Source: an uncultured delta proteobacterium
GTDB taxonomy: Bacteria > Myxococcota > Myxococcia > Myxococcales > Myxococcaceae
Assembly (NCBI GenBank): GCA_963771175.1
Contig: CAVYSY010000046.1
Span: 96,001 to 160,000 of the forward strand
Length of the DNA: 64,000 nt
Direction: 5' to 3'
Made by a program: the position numbers. Below, piece after piece: positions 42,001 through 51,000 of this stretch (positions within the stretch are counted from its first letter, which is position 1; every line of letters begins with the position of its first letter).

Positions 42001-45000
42001 CGGGCCTGCGTCCCGTGGAGCCGGGTGAGAAGGTCGTCGTGTCCCCGGTGGACGGCGCGGTGTCCCAGGTGGGCTACTCCGAGCACGGCCGTGTCATGCA
42101 GGCCAAGGGCATCCACTACACCGTGGACGAGCTGCTCGGGGACCCCCAGGCCGCGAAGCCCTTCCACGGCGGCGCCTGGACCACCATCTACCTGTCGCCC
42201 CGCGACTACCACCGCATCCACTCGCCGCTCGGCGGGAAGATCACCGGGTACTCGTACATCCCCGGCGAGTTCTGGCCCGTGAACGTGGCCTCGGTGAAGT
42301 ACAAGCAGGCGCTCTTCTGCGTGAACGAGCGGCTCGTCACCTACCTCGGACACCGCTGGCCGGCCAGTGCGCCGTGGTGAAGGTGGGCGCCACGTGCGTG
42401 GCGCGCATCAAGGCCGCCTATGACGACGTCGCTCACGCACACGGGCAAGCCGGGCAAGGTGCACCGCTACGACTCCGCCATTCCGGTGGAGAAGGGCGGG
42501 GAGCTGGGCCGCTTCGAGATGGGCTCCACCGTCATCCTGCTCTTCGAGCCGGGTCGCGTGCGCTGGGACGAGAGCCTCGCAGCCGGAGGCCGGTGGTGCG
42601 CATGGGCCGGCGCATCGGAGAGGTCGTCGTGAGTCAGAAGGTCAGTGGCGTCAAGGGGATGAACGACCTCCTCCCCGGTGAGGTCGAGGTGTGGCAGCAC
42701 CGTCGAGCGCACCGCCCGCGAGCTGTTCGGGCGCTTCGGCTACGGCGAGGTGCGCACCCCCATGGTCGAGGACACCGCGCTCTTCGTGCGCAGCGTGGGC
42801 GAGGAGACCGACATCGTCGGCAAGGAGATGTACACCTTCGAGGACAAGGGCGGCCGCAGCCTCGTCCCTGCGCCCCGAGGGCACCGCGCCGGCGGCGCGC
42901 GCGTACATCGAGCACTCCGTCGTCAACCAGGAGCCGCTCACGCGCTGGTTCTACATGGGCCCGATGTTCCGCTACGAGCGCATGAAGACGGGCGCTACCG
43001 CCAGTTCCACCAGATCGGCGCCGAGGCCTACGGCGCGCAGGAGCCCGCCGCAGGACGTCGAGGTGATGGACATGGTGGTGCAGTTCCTCGAGGCGCTGGG
43101 GCTCACCGACGTCTCGCTCAACCTCAACTCGCTCGGGGACGAGGCGTGCCGGCCCGTCTACCAGGCGAAGCTGGTGGAGCACCTGCGCGCCCACCGCGAG
43201 CGAGCTGTGCGCCGACTGCCAGGAGCGGCTGGATGCGCAACCCGCTGCGGGTGCTCGACTGCAAGAACCGAGCGCTGCCAGGAGATCGCCAGCGCCGCGC
43301 CCAACATCCTCGAGTTCCTGTGCGAGCCGTGCCGCGCGCACTTCGCCGAGGTGCAGCGCAAGCTGGACGCGCTCGGCATCCGGTACGTCGTCAACCCGCG
43401 CATCGTGCGCGGGCTCGACTACTACACGCGCACCACGTTCGAGTTCATCGCCTCGCACCCCGCGCTGGGCACCGCCAGCACCGTGGGCGGCGGCGGGCGC
43501 TATGACAAGCTGGTGAAGAGCCTGGGCGGGCCGGACGTGCCCGCGGTGGGCTTCGGCCTCGGGTTGGATCGGCTCTGCCTGCTGCTCAAGGAGAGCGGCC
43601 AGCAGTTCTCCCAGCCGGCGGACCTCTTCGTCGCCGTGGCGGACGAGGGCTCGGCGGATGCCGCCTTCGTGCTCGCCAGCACGCTGCGCCGCGAGGGCCT
43701 GCGCGTGGAGTTCGACACGCGCGGCGGCAGCCTCAAGAGCCAGATGAAGCGCGCCGACAAGGTGGGGGCCCGCTACACGCTGGTGCTCGGCCAGAACGAG
43801 CGCGAGAGCGGCAAGGCCCAGCTCAAGCCCATGGCGGGCGGAGAGCCCCTCGCCGTGGAGCTCGCCCACGTGGCCCGCACCTTGCGTGAAGCACTCTCCC
43901 GGTCCTCGACTCCCTCGGCCTCCTGAGCCGCGGGGAAGGGTGGATAGCCGGTAAAGCCCGCCAGACCCCTGACAATCCAAGGGGTTGGGCGGGCGGCGAT
44001 TTGGGGGTGTCGCCGAGGTGACGTTACAATCGTGCTCCAGTGATGCCACAGGACTGGACGCACGCGGAGCGAGAGGGCCCGTGCTGGATTCCCATCCGGG
44101 GAGACAGCATGTGGCCCTCTTTGCGTTCGGGCGACGTGGCGCGCGTGGAGCCGCTGACGGAGTCTCCTCGGCCCGGCGAGGTGGTGGTCGCGCGCTTCGA
44201 CCATGCGCTGGTGGTGCACCGCGTGCGCCGCTGTGACGCGGACGCGTGCGTGCTGCGCGGGGACAACGTGCCGGCGGAGGATCCGCCCCTGCCTCGCGCG
44301 CGGCTGCTGGGGCGGGTGCGCTTCGTGCGTCGTGGGGGCGAGGTGCTCGCGCCGGCCCGGTGGGATCGGGGGCCCCTGCGTTGGGGCCGCTGGCGCGTGG
44401 TGGTGAAGCGCGGGCTGGCGGCGCTGCTCGGGCGGAGGCGCGCATGAGCTTCCGAGCGGACAGCATCCCCCATCGGCGCGAGGGCGCGGACGGTCAGCGC
44501 TTCGGCGAGGACTTCGTGGTGTTGGATCCGGAAGGTCACATGCTTCGGGGTCTCAACGAGACGGCCGCGCGGGTCTGGGAGCTGGTCGACGGCCGGCGCA
44601 CCGCGCGCGACATCGCCGGAGTGGTGGCGAGCGAGTACGGCGTGGAAGTGGAGCGGGTGCTCGGGGACTGCCTGTCCTTCCTCGCGCGACTCGTGGGACA
44701 TGGGCTGTTGGACGCGGAGGTGCATCGATGAGAGTGCTCGGGATGGCGTCTGTGCTCCTGCTGCTGGCCGCGTGCGACCAAGGCAGCGTCCCGAATCCTC
44801 CCGACTGGGGGTCGTGGAATGGCATCACTCCGCCGGTGCGGCCCACGCCGCCGCTGCCTCCGCTGGTGGGCGTGGCGGAGGTCGCCTACGTGCCCGAGGG
44901 CGCGCGCGGTCTGTCCGAGGTGACGTCGGTGGAGGTGCGGCTGCGCGTGAGTGGCATCGTCAACTCGGCGTCGGTGGACGCGGAGTTCCTCGCTCCCGGC

Positions 45001-48000: not shown

Positions 48001-51000
48001 GACCTGGTCCACCCCCATCCCGAGCCCCTCCGGCTCCTTCTCGGCCACCCTGGGGGGCGTGCAGCGCCTCTATGTCGGCGGCAAGGACGAGAAGGTGCAC
48101 GAGCTGGAGATGGCCACCGGCGTGGATGGCAGGCAGATCTCCCTCCCTGGCGCTCTGGCCATCGGCACTCCGACAGTGGACACCTCCGTGTCGCGCCTCC
48201 ACGTGGGCACCCAGGATGGCCGCGTCTGTGCCTTCCAGGTGCCCTTCCCCTGAGCCCTCGATGACGCGCGATCCCCAGCCACCTCCCGAGGGAGCTCCGC
48301 CCGCGCCGGCCGTGGCCTCGCGTGCGCGCGTCTACGAGCCCCCCGCGGTGCTCTGGGAACAGCCCTTCGTCGCGCTCGCGCAGGTGTCCTTCAACGGCGA
48401 CTACGGCTGCGAGATCCCCGGCTCGTGCGAGGATATTCCGTGAGGAGGAGCCGCCGCCCGTGGTGACGCTGTCGCTGGCGGGCTGGACGGTGTCCCTGGA
48501 GTCCGAGGACACGGCGCTGGAGGAGCTGCTCGTCCGGGCGTGCCTCGCGTTCCGCACCTCCGAGCCGGCTCGGGCGCACGTCCGGGTGCTGCGTCCGGCG
48601 GTCTCCCGTCCGAGTCCCGCCGTGCGCTCCCTGCCGGAGATCCGCCCCGTCCCTGGTGGCGGTCAGCGGGTGGAGGGGGAGGACTACGTCGCGGACATCG
48701 CTCCCGAGGGCCGGAGCGCCACCGTGACGGGCGAGGGCCGCTTCCCCGTGGACACGGTGTTGAAGGTGATGCTCGCGGGCGAGCTGGCGAGGCGCGGGGG
48801 CCTGCTGGTGCACGGGGTGGCGGTGGAGCACCTCGGACGCGCTGCTCTGTGGACGGGCCCGTCCGGGGCGGGGAAGAGCACCCTGGCCGGGCTGTGGGCG
48901 AGGTCTGGCGGCACGGTGCTGACCGATGAGCTGGTGGCGGTGTGGCCCGAGGCGGGAGGCTGGCGCGCCGCCGGGACGCCGTGGAACGTGGGCATGCCTC
49001 GCGAGGCCTCGCTGCGCGCGGTGGGCCTCCTGGGCTGGGACTCGGGTTCGCGCTGGGAGCCCGTGGGGGCGGGGGAGGTGGCCCGGGTGCTGCTGCTCAA
49101 CGCGCTCCTGCCCGAGTCCTCCGCCGCCGGACGCCGCCATTTGATGGCTACGGCGGGCCGCCTGCTGGCGGAGGTGGAGACGGCCCGGCTCGTCTTCGCG
49201 CGAGATGCCTCCGCGGCGGACGTGGTGCGCGCGGGGCTGGAGCGCGGCTTCTAAGTCATCCGAAGAGAGTCCGTGCAGGGGTGGCTGCCGGGTGCGACCT
49301 TCGGCAACCTGTACGATAAGTGTACAAGTTGGGGCGGAGCGCGGCCGGGAGGTCGGTGGGCCTCCGTGCACAGGGGACCCGCCGGGCTCGGTCTTCGCAA
49401 ACCTGTCCGACAGTCGGACAGGTTTTTGAAAAGCGAGACCGGGAGGTGGTTGGGTCTCTTCCAGGCCCGAGGAATTCCGCTGGTTCATGGTACGAGCGGG
49501 GGTGGAGCGTCGATGAAGCCCTTCCTCACCGTTATCGCTGGACCCACCGCGTCCGGAAAGACCGCGATCGCCATCGAGCTTGCCCGCCGGCAGGGTGGGG
49601 AGATCGTCAGCGCGGACTCGCAGCAGGTGTATCGGTATTTCGACATCGGCACGGCGAAGCCCTCGGCGGAGGAGCTGGCCGCCGTGCCGCACCACCTCAT
49701 CTCCGTGGTGGACCCACTCGAGCCCTTCTCCGCCGCCGAGTACCAGCGTCGGGCTGACGCGGCCATCGAGGAGATCACCTCGCGGGGGAAGCCCGTCTTC
49801 GTGGTGGGCGGGACGGGGATGTACCTCCGCATCCTGCTACACGGCCTGGTGGAGGCGCCGGGGGCGGATCCCGAGCTGCGCGCCGAGCTGGAGGCGCTTG
49901 CCGCCGCCGAGGGCCGCGAGGCCGTGCACCGCAAGCTCGCCGAGGTGGATCCGGAGACCGCCGCGAAGCTTCCGTCCCAGGATCTGGTGCGCACCATCCG
50001 GGCGCTGGAGATCCACAAGCAGACGGGGAAGCCCGCCTCCGAGTTCCGCCGGGAGCACTCCTTCACCGAGGACCGCTATCCCTTCCGGATGTACGTGCTC
50101 TCGCCGCCGCGCGAGGTGCTGTACGGCACCATCGACACGCGCACGGCGGCCATGTTCCAGCGCGGGCTGGTGGACGAGGTACGGGAGCTGATCGCCCGGG
50201 GCTACGCGGAGGCGGCGCCCATGCGCAGCGTGGGCTACGTGCAGGCGAAGGCGGTGGTGGACGGGCGGCTCCCGGTGGAGGAGGCGATCCAGCAGGCGGC
50301 ACAGGAGACGCGCCGCTACGCCAAGCGGCAGCTCACGTGGTTCCGCAAGGAGGCGGGGGCCGTCTTCGTGGAGCCCCCATATGACACGCTGCTGAAGGGC
50401 ACCGGGCCCGGGTGAGGGCAGGAACGGGCGACTACCGCTCGGGGAGGGACTTGAGCACGAACACGTTGCCTTCCGAGTGGAAGACCACGGACCCATGGGC
50501 CACAAGGCCCTCGGGCGTGCTCACGCGGCTGGAGGCATCCTGCCGGACGTCCTGCTCCATGTCGGAGGGGAACTCGATGGTGCTCGCCAGGACCGCGTCG
50601 CCCGGGGAGAGAGGCGAGATGGTGAAGACCGGGCAGGGGGCTCGAACGCACCGGACGCCGCTGTCGGTGAGCCGGTACAGGTCGGGCGCGGCGATGACTT
50701 CACCTTCCGCGTACTCGATATCGTCAGCGTCCCCGGGGAAGAGGGGAGTGCCACACGCTGCTGCTCCGAACATCAGGGACGCGAGGATGTACTTTCTCAT
50801 GGTGAACGAACCGGAGCTGCAAGGGGTATTCCTCCACCAGCGCTCGGAGTTTCGCGGGTTTGTGCGAGGTGAGGTCCTCAAAAATCCGAGATCCCATGAC
50901 AGCGGGGGACCAGCATGAGCGGCTCCAAAGGGAAGGTCGTCCTCATCCGCGGAGCTGCAGAGCGCCCGAGGCCACACCGCCTACGGCACGAGCCGCAAGT

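Follow-up and report, generated by a model that had tools for sequence, protein, structure and literature searches.

What does the six-gene cassette in this window, the whole 64,000-nucleotide stretch of DNA analysed, produce, and do the envelope proteins encoded within it belong to the same pathway? By analogy and from sequence comparison, the cassette is probably a myxobacterial version of the LPP ("linear polyphosphorylated peptide") type of peptide-maturation pathway, which has been characterised in Bacillota (Popov et al., Nat Commun 2026, PMC13381572). We use the name because its enzyme trio and precursor match that pathway as published. Its product would most likely be a small phosphorylated, cysteine-looped peptide.

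Organisation of the cassette

The cassette comprises six tightly packed genes on the + strand (window 44043-49254), encoding in order a peptidase, a PqqD-type protein, a lipoprotein, an Ig/β-propeller protein, a peptide and a kinase (Table 1). All six ORFs were confirmed, as the genome-wide survey's note had described them. Spacing is close, with two 4-nt overlaps, the first between the peptidase and PqqD genes, followed by gaps of 4, 7 and 16 nt. The cassette is flanked by hisS and miaA, and the earlier report of this placement in other genera was borne out. Neither the cassette nor the housekeeping genes around it include an NTP_transf_5 gene or an ABC exporter; the PF14907 matches of the genome lie on other contigs or, in one weak case, far from a second, divergent cassette.

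Table 1. Features of the cassette, in window coordinates
Feature	Position	Strand	Evidence
Small soluble S24/S26-clan serine peptidase (candidate LppS-like leader peptidase)	44043..44447	+	Pfam, motifs, AF2
Discrete PqqD-type RiPP recognition element (LppB / lasso-B1-like)	44444..44731	+	Pfam PqqD E 2.6e-17
Lipoprotein: lipobox, Pro-rich linker, ~100-aa β-sandwich	44728..45186	+	Lipobox L-L-A-A-C, AF2
1020-aa secreted protein: signal peptide, probable Ig/Fn3-like repeats, C-terminal PQQ_2/BamB-type β-propeller (about residues 630-1020)	45191..48253	+	Pfam PQQ_2
Precursor residues 1-40 (leader part)	48261..48380	+	Alignment, segment identities
Predicted core Q41-P60 plus stop codon	48381..48443	+	S43/C50 conservation, LPP comparison
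HPr-kinase-like P-loop kinase (LppK-like), 264 aa	48460..49254	+	PDB profile matches, NCBIfam

The precursor peptide

The precursor gene (48261-48443, +) encodes 60 residues. A variable N-terminus rich in Pro and Ala (residues 1-24) precedes a conserved leader, Y25-E-P-P28-A-V-L-W32-E33-Q-P-F36-V-A38-L-A40. Over 19 aligned peptides, pairwise identity averages 0.73 in the leader (residues 25-40), compared with 0.14 in residues 2-24 and 0.34 in the core, and drops to 0.06 between Ser43 and the first Cys. The pattern of fixed leader and fast-changing core noted earlier is confirmed. The conserved leader motif Y-x-P-P was recovered too, except that its third position is P or A and Y-x-x-P therefore fits better. 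P28, W32, E33, F36, S43 and C50 are invariant in the alignment (S43 and C50 in 19/19), and A38 and A40 are each at least 90% conserved. A38-L-A40 constitutes an A-x-A site, the type preferred by signal peptidases. In 18 of the 19 peptides, Ser is the third residue (+3) following A-x-A. By analogy, Ser43 (codon 48387-48389) is the predicted phospho-acceptor. Cys50 and Cys56 are predicted to form a loop.

The peptidase and the PqqD-type protein

The ATG of the peptidase gene at 44043 lies immediately 3′ of an in-frame GTG at 44040, from which residues are numbered here. Orthologous peptidases begin M-P-x-D-W at the position of this ATG, which bears out the earlier assignment of the start to 44043; the GDSMWPSL motif on which that assignment dwelt is present. 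The protein matches Pfam Peptidase_S24 above the cut-off (E 5.5e-11; 42.6 bits against 23.3) and the NCBIfam models sigpep_I_arch (E 6.5e-7) and NiSOD protease (E 1.7e-7) below theirs. The predicted catalytic residues, Ser23, His60 and Asp75 (in G-D-N), are kept in 10/10 orthologues, as are G21-D-S-M-W-P26, H60-R61 and G74-D-N76. An AF2 model (pLDDT 84.6) gave no Foldseek match at E<=1e-3, the top matches being the LexA C-domain, SipA and human SEC11A/C at E 1.6e-3 to 3.2e-3.

A profile of the PqqD-type protein matched TbiB1 (lasso; E 5.8e-10), PqqD 3g2b (E 5.7e-8) and LppB 9x8z_B (E 7e-8) in the PDB, placing this element at least as near to lasso B1 or PqqD as to LppB. The three-partner model of peptidase, PqqD protein and peptide scored 0.80 (best control 0.44, others 0.02 and 0.01), passing a mark reached by 116/157 solved complexes and 2/215 mismatched pairs; the pass may reflect only likeness, because similar complexes have been solved (9x8z, 5v1v and 6jx3). 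At least 68% of contacts agree between runs, and partner pLDDT is at least 55. The modelled interface involves peptide residues 23 and 25-42, PqqD residues 31-41 and peptidase residues 17-25, 56-60, 74 and 76-77, the last covering the predicted catalytic Ser23 and His60 and flanking Asp75.

The kinase

Profile searches of the PDB with the kinase returned HPr kinase/phosphorylase first (1jb1 and 2qmh, E 8.5e-8; 1ko7, E 9.2e-6). H118, the P-loop S135..G138-K-S-T141 and D156 are invariant in 20/20 sequences. Among NCBIfam models, HprK_rel_A (E 1.1e-5; 24.7 bits, cut-off 200), HprK_rel_B (E 2.6e-4) and ScmC (E 1.6e-3) were matched, and all family-specific NCBIfam scores for cassette proteins fall far below cut-off. 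The kinase and PqqD profiles, with the conserved Ser/His/Asp of the peptidase, support the RiPP-type reading proposed in the genome-wide survey's note.

Distribution and the envelope proteins

A peptide profile found matches in 38 of the 53 additional Myxococcaceae genomes that were sampled. Across 81 genomes of the family the peptide occurs in 37, each with a kinase match; an orthologue-grade kinase (E<1e-26) occurs in 30, 29 of which have the peptide. The dedicated peptidase (E<=1e-10) is present in only 20 of the 81 and is not the constant cassette member it had been taken for. The sole weak peptidase matches of G021, G004 and G016 adjoin a paralogous (type-2) kinase, G017 has a weak match only, and G038 has none in the profile search.

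Both envelope proteins lie between the PqqD and peptide genes. The lipoprotein matched no family in Pfam or NCBIfam; its AF2 model (pLDDT 83.6) has seven strands over residues 47-151, and Foldseek against the PDB found nothing at E<=1e-3, returning generic Ig/Fn3/CARDB-like sandwiches. Its gene is co-conserved with the propeller gene in the compared loci. The 1020-residue protein matches Pfam PQQ_2 above the cut-off (E 2.5e-8; 34.3 bits against 27.6), and its N-terminal part gave Atlas leads only, to Ig/Fn3/CARDB/Big_13 clusters (scores 0.78-0.86).

An unlikely though still serious alternative is that the operon joins two independent modules: a peptide pathway made up of peptidase, PqqD protein, precursor and kinase, and a lipoprotein and Ig/propeller protein that belong to the cell envelope and take no part in it. 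In G006, the stretch from hisS to miaA holds peptidase, PqqD and kinase genes but none for lipoprotein, propeller or peptide, and the isolated peptide gene adjoins uvrB; G044 has a peptidase-PqqD-peptide locus without a propeller gene. The generic fold of the lipoprotein and the lack of a transporter in the cassette or flanks to carry the peptide to envelope proteins point the same way. However, propeller homologues occur elsewhere in G006 and G044 (E 3e-88 and 9e-86), and synteny argues for a connection. Of the 46 named Myxococcota loci, 37 preserve the complete six-gene order and 6 of the remaining 9 are broken off by contig ends; propeller orthologues immediately precede the peptide gene in named loci, and the peptide match starts at most 56 nt past the propeller match in 36 of the 37 complete ones (the outlier, L073, has 1640 nt). 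Shorter arrangements in G008 and G054 keep lipoprotein, a 549-aa propeller and peptide together with the peptidase elsewhere. An Ig-like and/or FG-GAP-type β-propeller protein lies between PqqD and peptide in the second cassette of the source genome (L055) and in G020 (L054), and the peptide of Anaeromyxobacter oryzae adjoins a 1088-aa propeller-like protein. The earlier reservation, that propeller and peptide may have no connection, stands but is weakened by these observations.

Proposed maturation and competing chemistries

The Bacillota pathway is the likely source, by analogy, of the cassette's chemistry: core Ser3 phosphorylation and RRE-dependent leader removal. As published, LppK phosphorylates core Ser3 and S3A abolishes phosphorylation, LppS requires S29, H68 and D93, leader removal depends on the RRE, and the precursor is cut after T-1 (PMC13381572). 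The published consensus YxxPxVLxHQxIxFET/xxS (slash, cut) aligns without gaps to the window peptide, YEPPAVLWEQPFVALA/QVS, with Y25, P28, V30, L31, Q34 and A40/Q41-V42-S43 at equal spacing. On this alignment, the cut at an A-x-A site would fall after Ala40, and the invariant Ser43 would occupy core position 3.

By analogy with LppB, the PqqD protein would bind the leader at Y25-x-x-P28-x-V30-L31 as an extra β-strand. The kinase, like LppK, would phosphorylate Ser43 (core Ser3), possibly several times, and the peptidase, aided by the bound PqqD protein, would cleave like LppS after A38-L-A40, releasing a 20-residue core, Q41-P60. Should the peptide get to an oxidising compartment, a small Cys50-Cys56 loop could close, and the peptide may act jointly with the lipoprotein and Ig/β-propeller protein at the cell envelope.

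Class II-IV lanthipeptide synthetases use phosphorylation followed by elimination. A kinase that activates Ser43 to dehydroalanine, with Cys addition giving a lanthionine-like thioether ring instead of a phosphopeptide with a disulfide, would suit a core that always has a Ser and at least two Cys in the 19 aligned peptides. We consider this very improbable, as Pfam and NCBIfam searches found no lyase/cyclase domain in the six proteins, the Anaeromyxobacter core has a single Cys far from Ser3, and the LPP Ser3 phosphate is described as retained and extended (PMC13381572). It is equally hard to credit that the peptide is a small intracellular regulator phosphorylated for signalling, with the S24-like protein a LexA-type self-cleaving regulator, despite the LexA C-domain and HPr kinase matches and vertical inheritance of the locus between housekeeping genes. 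The peptidase has just 134 residues and no DNA-binding domain by Pfam, with His at the LexA Lys position; the bona fide HPr kinase model gives the kinase a score of 15.3 bits (cut-off 240); the leader is fixed while the core evolves fast; and the combination of a PqqD recognition protein and a YxxP leader is the hallmark of lasso/LPP-type maturation (PMC13381572). Least probable of all is a precursor of a peptide-derived cofactor for a PQQ-type propeller, recalling PqqA/PqqD and PQQ-dependent propeller dehydrogenases: one operon does bring together a PQQ_2-family propeller with a small peptide and a member of the PqqD family, but Pfam and NCBIfam searches of the cassette found no radical-SAM PqqE and neither PqqB nor PqqC, the 19 cores share no conserved Glu/Tyr pair, PQQ_2 is a BamB-like repeat family, the propeller matched no cofactor-binding dehydrogenase models, and an FG-GAP propeller replaces it in the second cassette.

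Comparison with the LPP pathway

For the LPP-type pathway that we favour, likeness to LppS and LppK was judged through fold-family profiles and published residues and consensus. A Muribaculaceae MAG locus (L113) combines an S24 peptidase and PqqD with a kinase-like gene, an NTP_transf_5 gene and an ABC exporter, and this is the full LPP gene set as published; the myxobacterial profiles match the peptidase (E 2e-14) and the kinase (E 2e-17) of this locus. The myxobacterial cassette lacks the NTP-transferase and ABC exporter. Its precursor departs from the consensus at H9 (E), I12 (F) and F-E-T (A-L-A), although the A. oryzae peptide (L112), with L-T/A-A-S, has Thr at -1 as in LPP. Unlike in the LPP pathway, the core has a two-Cys loop, the cassette sits at a fixed chromosomal position, the dedicated peptidase turned up in no more than about half of the genomes carrying the peptide, and the precursor gene directly follows that of a secreted propeller. 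The pairing with two surface proteins may hint at the purpose of such peptides, and the cassette would represent an LPP-like variant in a phylum that the LPP paper excluded (PMC13381572).

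Organization of the cassette

Six plus-strand genes occupy 44043-49254; neighbours either overlap by 4 nt, as happens twice, or stand 4, 7 or 16 nt apart. In the ORFs picked by the GC3-based caller, those containing the peptidase, lipoprotein, propeller protein and kinase, GC3 ranges from 0.87 to 0.93. The cassette is flanked by hisS upstream and miaA downstream. The wider flanks are housekeeping in character (MlaE, a metallophosphoesterase, phosphatidylserine decarboxylase, a TPR protein, a response regulator and RsmB), and neither a transporter nor a nucleotidyltransferase is encoded there. 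A scan of 43700-49700 gave no promoter-like sites and one terminator-like site, on the minus strand, with no excess over shuffled sequence. A search of sequencing runs listed none of RNA that contains the region.

Features of the cassette, of its peptide and of a second cassette in the same genome. Positions are those of the window unless marked otherwise; identities are means over all pairs of 19 peptides.
Feature	Position	Strand	Remark
Peptidase, 134/135 aa	ATG 44043, in-frame GTG just before at 44040	+	motif G-D-S-M-W-P-S-L
PqqD-family protein, 95 aa	second gene of cassette	+	Pfam PqqD, E 2.6e-17
Lipoprotein, 152 aa	third gene of cassette	+	no family match
Secreted protein, 1020 aa	fourth gene of cassette	+	C-terminal PQQ_2/BamB-type propeller, E 2.5e-8, above cut-off
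Peptide, 60 aa	48261-48443	+	MTRDPQPPPEGAPPAPAVASRARVYEPPAVLWEQPFVALAQVSFNGDYGCEIPGSCEDIP
P-loop protein, 264 aa	sixth gene of cassette	+	HprK-related models the sole family matches, far below cut-off
Peptide, variable N-terminus	residues 2-24		mean pairwise identity 0.14
Peptide, leader	residues 25-40		mean pairwise identity 0.73
Peptide, predicted core	residues 41-60		mean pairwise identity 0.34
Peptide, Ser43 to first Cys			mean pairwise identity 0.06
Type-2 cassette (locus L055)	G000:C32:574000-587000; about 3549-12596 in locus coordinates	-	in the window's own genome (G000)

The upstream neighbour hisS (42374-43926), the genome's single copy, reads through at least three frames, and ten single bases of its 5' half (42345-43050) are missing from the contigs of related strains. 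Because hisS is essential, these breaks are probably insertion errors of the assembly rather than the marks of a pseudogene. Together with the split of phosphatidylserine decarboxylase into two ORFs (41784-42380 and 42420-42632), they look like assembly indel errors; the completeness score of the genome is 81.7%. Four DNA contig sets served as the check on the assembly. The cassette itself differs from the related-strain contigs by substitutions and intergenic indels only (99 mismatches and 5 gaps over 43273-49364), and its six ORFs are intact, in agreement with their orthologues.

A precursor with a conserved leader and a variable core

The linear polyphosphorylated peptide (LPP) pathway, first described in 2026, was defined in Bacillota, for example by the lppA-K-B-S-D-N cluster of Paenibacillus alginolyticus (Popov et al., Nat Commun 2026;17:6633, PMC13381572). 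In the parts of that paper drawn on here, the gene set comprises a SipW/archaeal-type signal-peptidase-like LppS with catalytic residues S29, H68 and D93, a discrete RRE, LppB, an HprK-like kinase, LppK, an NTP transferase, LppN, and an MsbA-like exporter, LppD. The precursor has the consensus YxxPxVLxHQxIxFETxxS and its leader is cut after T-1; Ser3 of the core receives one to four phosphates, and the S3A substitution abolishes phosphorylation. LppS requires LppB, and unphosphorylated precursor is handled poorly.

The myxobacterial peptide gene is real: most related genomes have a small ORF with this leader immediately before the kinase orthologue. When 19 peptides, each from a different genome, were aligned, residues P28, W32, E33, F36, S43 and C50 proved invariant, and Y25, A38 and A40 each at least 90% conserved. 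The genome-wide survey's note had described a conserved leader followed by a fast-changing core, and the segment identities bear this out (0.73 versus 0.34). The cores end in C-x(5-10)-C and then one to four residues, and those at two loci, L044 and L024, carry four Cys.

The N-terminal LPP consensus is present in the precursor. The window peptide aligns with it without gaps, sharing Tyr, Pro, Val, Leu, Gln and Ser at positions 1, 4, 6, 7, 10 and 19; position 6 is V or I among the myxobacterial peptides. It departs from the consensus in having E for H9, F for I12 and A-L-A for F14-E15-T16. A cut is predicted after A38-L-A40, which would make the invariant Ser43 residue 3 of the core. The A-[LFM]-A motif, a signal-peptidase-type -3/-1 site, was recognised in the myxobacterial peptides ahead of the LPP comparison, and the near-invariant Ser three residues past the predicted cut was noted next. 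Lasso-peptide kinases, which are HPr-kinase-like, phosphorylate a precursor Ser, and the window kinase is reminiscent of them. The published LPP chemistry matches the expectations for site and kinase that had been formed beforehand. In Anaeromyxobacter oryzae (locus L112), F-E-P-L-T precedes the predicted cut and A-A-S follows it, placing Thr at -1 as in LPP. Searched against PDB chains, the peptide profile gave no match, and hence nothing that ties it by sequence directly to the LppA leader of the crystal structure. The predicted scaffold, an N-terminal phospho-Ser motif followed by a Cys loop, would be a new one.

Recognition protein, kinase and peptidase

Among solved structures, a profile of 15 PqqD-family orthologues matched TbiB1 (E 5.8e-10), PqqD 3g2b (5.7e-8), LppB 9x8z_B (7e-8), TfuB1 (1e-5) and PbaB1 (2.4e-5). 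The cassette thus encodes a discrete PqqD/winged-helix RRE as LPP clusters do, and TbiB1 and 3g2b match it as well as or better than LppB. The 9x8z entry is described as the structure of LppB with the LppA leader (PMC13381572). When a profile of 20 kinases was searched against the PDB, HPr kinase/phosphorylase came first (1jb1 and 2qmh, E 8.5e-8; 1ko7, 9.2e-6), with an alignment spanning H-G...G-x-S-G-x-G-K-S...D-[DE]. Residues H118 and D156 and the P-loop are invariant in all 20 sequences. The protein is an HprK-like kinase, which we liken to LppK by description.

The peptidase scores above the cut-off for Pfam Peptidase_S24 (E 5.5e-11) and below those for the NCBIfam models sigpep_I_arch (6.5e-7) and NiSOD maturation protease (1.7e-7). 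Three motifs, G-D-S23-M-W-P, H60-R and G-D75-N, are kept in 10 of 10 orthologues and would form a Ser/His/Asp arrangement as in LppS, which we take to be that of SipW/SEC11-type enzymes. The AF2 model (pLDDT 84.6) matches solely S24/S26-clan folds, namely the LexA C-domain, SipA and human SEC11A/C (E 1.6e-3 to 3.2e-3, TM ~0.5); these matches are consistent with an S24/S26-type peptidase, but weak. As a putative leader peptidase of the SipW/archaeal Ser/His/Asp type, it is likened to LppS by description.

A complex model of peptidase, PqqD protein and peptide, built from our own alignments, scored 0.80, against 0.44 when the peptidase was replaced and 0.02 and 0.01 when the peptide was replaced. 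The mark applied to such models is reached by 116 of 157 solved complexes and by 2 of 215 mismatched pairs. Contact agreement between runs is 68% or more, with a partner pLDDT of at least 55. In the model, peptide residues 23 and 25-42 would contact PqqD residues 31-41, with predicted strand pairing around P28-F36. On the peptidase side, predicted contacts fall at 17-25, 56-60, 74 and 76-77, an interface that would cover the predicted catalytic Ser23 and His60 and, through 74 and 76-77, flank Asp75. Because RRE-leader complexes of this kind have already been solved, the pass may reflect mere likeness, and the model supports leader binding without demonstrating it.

Distribution and synteny

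A pattern scan derived from the peptidase alignment placed the window in the genus Archangium and gave 46 Myxococcota loci (L067-L112). The cassette genera are Archangium, Vitiosangium, Corallococcus, Pyxidicoccus, Myxococcus, including M. xanthus, and Citreicoccus, and a rearranged form occurs in A. oryzae. The order peptidase-PqqD-lipoprotein-propeller-peptide-kinase is found at 37 of the 46 loci. Six of the remaining nine are cut by contig ends; L106 is without lipoprotein, propeller and peptide, L111 has the peptidase alone, and L112, from A. oryzae, is ordered peptidase-PqqD-peptide-propeller-kinase.

The counts that follow describe samples in which related genomes are non-independent. 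The kinase was found at E<=1e-5 in 61 of 81 family genomes and at orthologue grade (E<1e-26) in 30, and the peptide profile in 37, every one with a kinase match. The peptide accompanies the orthologue-grade kinase in 29 of the 30 genomes, the exception (G060) being 88% complete. Across a sample of 201 phylum genomes the peptide profile matched 41, among them 38 of 53 further family genomes and, with weak E-values, 2 of 2 in one other family; it was not found elsewhere in that sample. In the two best-sampled genera of the family, probably Corallococcus and Myxococcus, all 16 and all 13 sampled genomes have it. The cassette appears to be a stable chromosomal feature.

At E<=1e-10 only 20 of the 81 family genomes yielded the peptidase, and 18 of these carry the peptide. 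Five peptide-bearing genomes were re-searched for it at E<=0.01, and four gave weak matches only (9e-8 to 2e-4). The weak matches of G004, G016 and G021 adjoin the paralogous kinase, and G038 had no match at that threshold. With the peptidase missing from many peptide-bearing genomes, the leader must at times be removed by a different protease, perhaps the paralogue.

Some genomes carry the cassette split. G044 has peptidase, PqqD and peptide at one locus and the kinase at another; in G006, peptidase, PqqD and kinase lie between hisS and miaA and the peptide stands alone beside uvrB; in G008 and G054, the kinase is apart from a group of lipoprotein, short propeller and peptide, with the peptidase elsewhere. 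Between its hisS and peptidase genes, G006 also has one for a secreted thioredoxin/AhpC-TSA-like protein (L041:4503-5090, minus strand), which may be relevant to disulfide handling of the Cys loop, or a coincidence.

Two further loci deserve mention. In an Archangium MAG (G015), peptidase and PqqD read as one 236-aa ORF (L051:7766-8476, minus strand), which is either a natural peptidase-RRE fusion or a MAG frameshift error. A contig titled 'Comamonas sp. KCTC 72670' (L088, BNCN01000013.1) carries a full myxobacterial cassette with the peptidase at 66% identity, and its organism label looks wrong.

The lipoprotein and propeller protein as possible partners of the peptide

We infer that the lipoprotein and the propeller protein belong to the peptide system. 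This is supported by the position of the peptide gene within 56 nt of the propeller gene in 36 of 37 complete named loci, by the lipoprotein-propeller-peptide trio, which stays joined when the enzymes move (G008 and G054), and by a divergent second cassette that repeats the design with other parts (L055, and L054 in genome G020). It is weakened by the splitting of the cassette in some genomes (G044, G006, G008 and G054), by its having no exporter and by the generic β-sandwich fold of the lipoprotein, for which a fold search found no specific relative.

The second, type-2 cassette encodes, in order, a PqqD protein, Ig-like/propeller proteins, a short peptide, an HprK-like kinase and a peptidase-GNAT acetyltransferase fusion. 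At L055 the surface proteins are a 1211-aa Big_13 Ig-like protein and a separate 646-aa FG-GAP propeller protein, the peptide has 46 aa, a Y-R-P-P-R-V leader and two Cys, and the final gene encodes an EamA-type transporter. At L054 a single 956-aa FG-GAP protein replaces the Big_13 and FG-GAP pair, and the peptide has four Cys. The type-2 cassette resembles that of the window in combining a PqqD protein, an HprK-like kinase, an S24-like peptidase and a short Y-R-P-P-x-[VL] peptide with secreted Ig-like/beta-propeller proteins encoded between PqqD and peptide. It differs in the fusion of the peptidase to GNAT, in the FG-GAP type of the propeller and in the Big_13 Ig-like domains forming a protein of their own. 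Type-2 peptides, of 46-47 aa, have a K-K-x-Y-R-P-P-x-[VL] leader and a Cys-rich end; they have no Ser at the equivalent of core Ser3, with a Thr nearby. The type-2 kinase is 33% identical to the window kinase over residues 14-256, and paralogues of this grade occur in many family genomes.

A bolder reading, which we hold tentatively and think rather doubtful, is that the phosphorylated Cys-loop peptide would be a dedicated partner of the co-encoded lipoprotein and Ig/beta-propeller protein, serving as ligand, as maturation factor or as a tag that docks covalently or non-covalently. LPP-type phosphopeptides would then generally act in cell-surface protein systems and not as free antibiotics, and the Myxococcaceae pair would be vertically inherited envelope biology. 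If so, the PQQ-type and FG-GAP-type cassettes would each be equipped with a separate peptide, PqqD protein and kinase, and the tractable model Myxococcus xanthus would offer a first functional handle on LPPs. Because M. xanthus carries the cassette and is genetically manipulable, the role of LPP-type peptides is directly testable.

Comparison with known peptide systems

The cassette is not a lasso, PQQ or HPr-kinase system. In paeninodin-type phosphorylated lasso peptides (Zhu et al. 2016, as summarised in the review PMC8498205), an HPr-kinase homologue acts on a leader-bearing precursor and a PqqD-like B1 protein recognises a [Y/W]xxP leader. The cassette has both an HPr-kinase homologue and a PqqD-like recognition protein. 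However, the B2 transglutaminase-type protease and the asparagine-synthetase-like macrolactam (lasso) cyclase were not found in the six cassette proteins with Pfam and NCBIfam. Lasso kinases, as that account describes them, phosphorylate a C-terminal Ser, whereas the last residue of the cassette peptides is P, D, E, G or L and their conserved Ser lies near the core N-terminus.

Other systems share single parts. In HprK-related kinase A/B systems and the SynChlorMet ScmC/ScmD system, too, an HprK-like kinase goes together with a PqqD-family protein. The window proteins belong to neither, since they score far below the curated NCBIfam cut-offs (HprK_rel_A, E 1.1e-5, 24.7 versus 200; ScmC, E 1.6e-3, 17.8 versus 125; ScmD, E 2.4e-4, 21.2 versus 100); the cassette also has no radical-SAM enzymes. 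A housekeeping type I signal peptidase or SipW fits the peptidase poorly: sigpep_I_arch gave 29.4 bits against a cut-off of 51.85, no hydrophobic N-terminal segment was seen in the sequence, and the model has only a predicted basic C-terminal helix (residues 114-133). PQQ biosynthesis was rejected at 30.4 bits against 46 for the PQQ_PqqD equivalog, with no PqqB, PqqC or PqqE in the cassette, and the HPr kinase/phosphorylase of carbon catabolite control at 15.3 bits against 240 for the hpr-ser model TIGR00679.

The peptidase pattern scan also returned loci from Actinomycetota, WOR-3 and similar lineages. L123 has a small S26 peptidase beside malic enzyme, L130 only a malic-enzyme ORF overlapping the peptidase match, and L136 a LexA; being without a PqqD protein or kinase, these are not related systems. 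The other loci of this kind were compared with the myxobacterial profiles only. Two loci from elsewhere are richer. A Muribaculaceae MAG (L113, CAYWPV010000092.1, 1781-6281) carries a complete LPP-type gene set outside Bacillota, with NTP_transf_5, a kinase-like gene, an S24 peptidase, PqqD and an ABC exporter. The set follows a gene for a BACON/DUF4876 protein, and a motif search found no precursor there. In a Verrucomicrobia MAG (L114, 27-6822), NTP_transf_5 and an S24 peptidase share one 423-aa ORF, which is either a fusion or two genes merged by the ORF call. The next genes encode a radical-SAM enzyme, an HprK-like kinase, a prenyltransferase/cyclase-like protein and a thioredoxin-like protein, and a small ORF between the radical-SAM and kinase genes has a Y-S-R-P-R-L leader and three Cys. 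This locus looks like a hybrid radical-SAM/kinase peptide cluster.

The LPP pathway is stated to be restricted to Bacillota (PMC13381572). Among the entries drawn on from Supplementary Data 1 of that paper, the four Myxococcota peptidase rows are Chondromyces apiculatus, twice, and two MAGs; none of the four is from Myxococcaceae and none is called LPP. A literature search covering sources other than subscription journals found no paper on the myxobacterial cassette, and 'polyphosphorylated peptide' only in the Popov paper (PMC13381572).

Two LPP components are absent. No domain of the NTP transferase LppN was found in the six cassette proteins or the flanks, and no MsbA-like ABC exporter like LppD in or beside the cassette; the nearest ABC genes are Mla-type, about 7 kb upstream. 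Elsewhere in the genome, PF14907 matches lie on contigs C57 and C40, with a weak one at C32:514717 and none on the window's contig, C46. Those on C57 (G000:C57:30717-34007, loci L056 and L057) are two adjacent NTP_transf_5 genes (E 6.6e-40 and 1.3e-21), one in a 739-aa open frame, and a whole-genome search found no cassette-type kinase beside them.

The two systems differ in other ways as well. The predicted cut follows A-L-A in the cassette and F-E-T in LPP, and the short cassette core of 15-24 aa contains a two-Cys loop or, in some peptides, four Cys. In Myxococcaceae the locus keeps its synteny and is passed on vertically; in Bacilli the distribution of LPP is patchy, with horizontal spread. 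Unlike in LPP, about half of the genomes with the peptide are missing the peptidase, and the operon includes genes for a lipoprotein and an Ig/beta-propeller protein.

What the cassette has in common with LPP is a discrete PqqD-type RRE, an HprK-like kinase, a SipW/archaeal-type Ser/His/Asp leader peptidase and a YxxPx[VI]L...Q...xxS precursor of identical spacing with a conserved Ser at core position 3; in neither is there a macrolactam cyclase within the cassette. With these four sequence-level features present, and the NTP transferase and exporter lacking, the cassette probably works like LPP. The comparison points to another phylum that shares the LPP logic of recognition protein, kinase and peptidase: reported as confined to Bacillota, this logic would now extend to Myxococcota, in a cassette that has neither nucleotidyltransferase nor exporter but is coupled to a lipoprotein and a secreted propeller protein.
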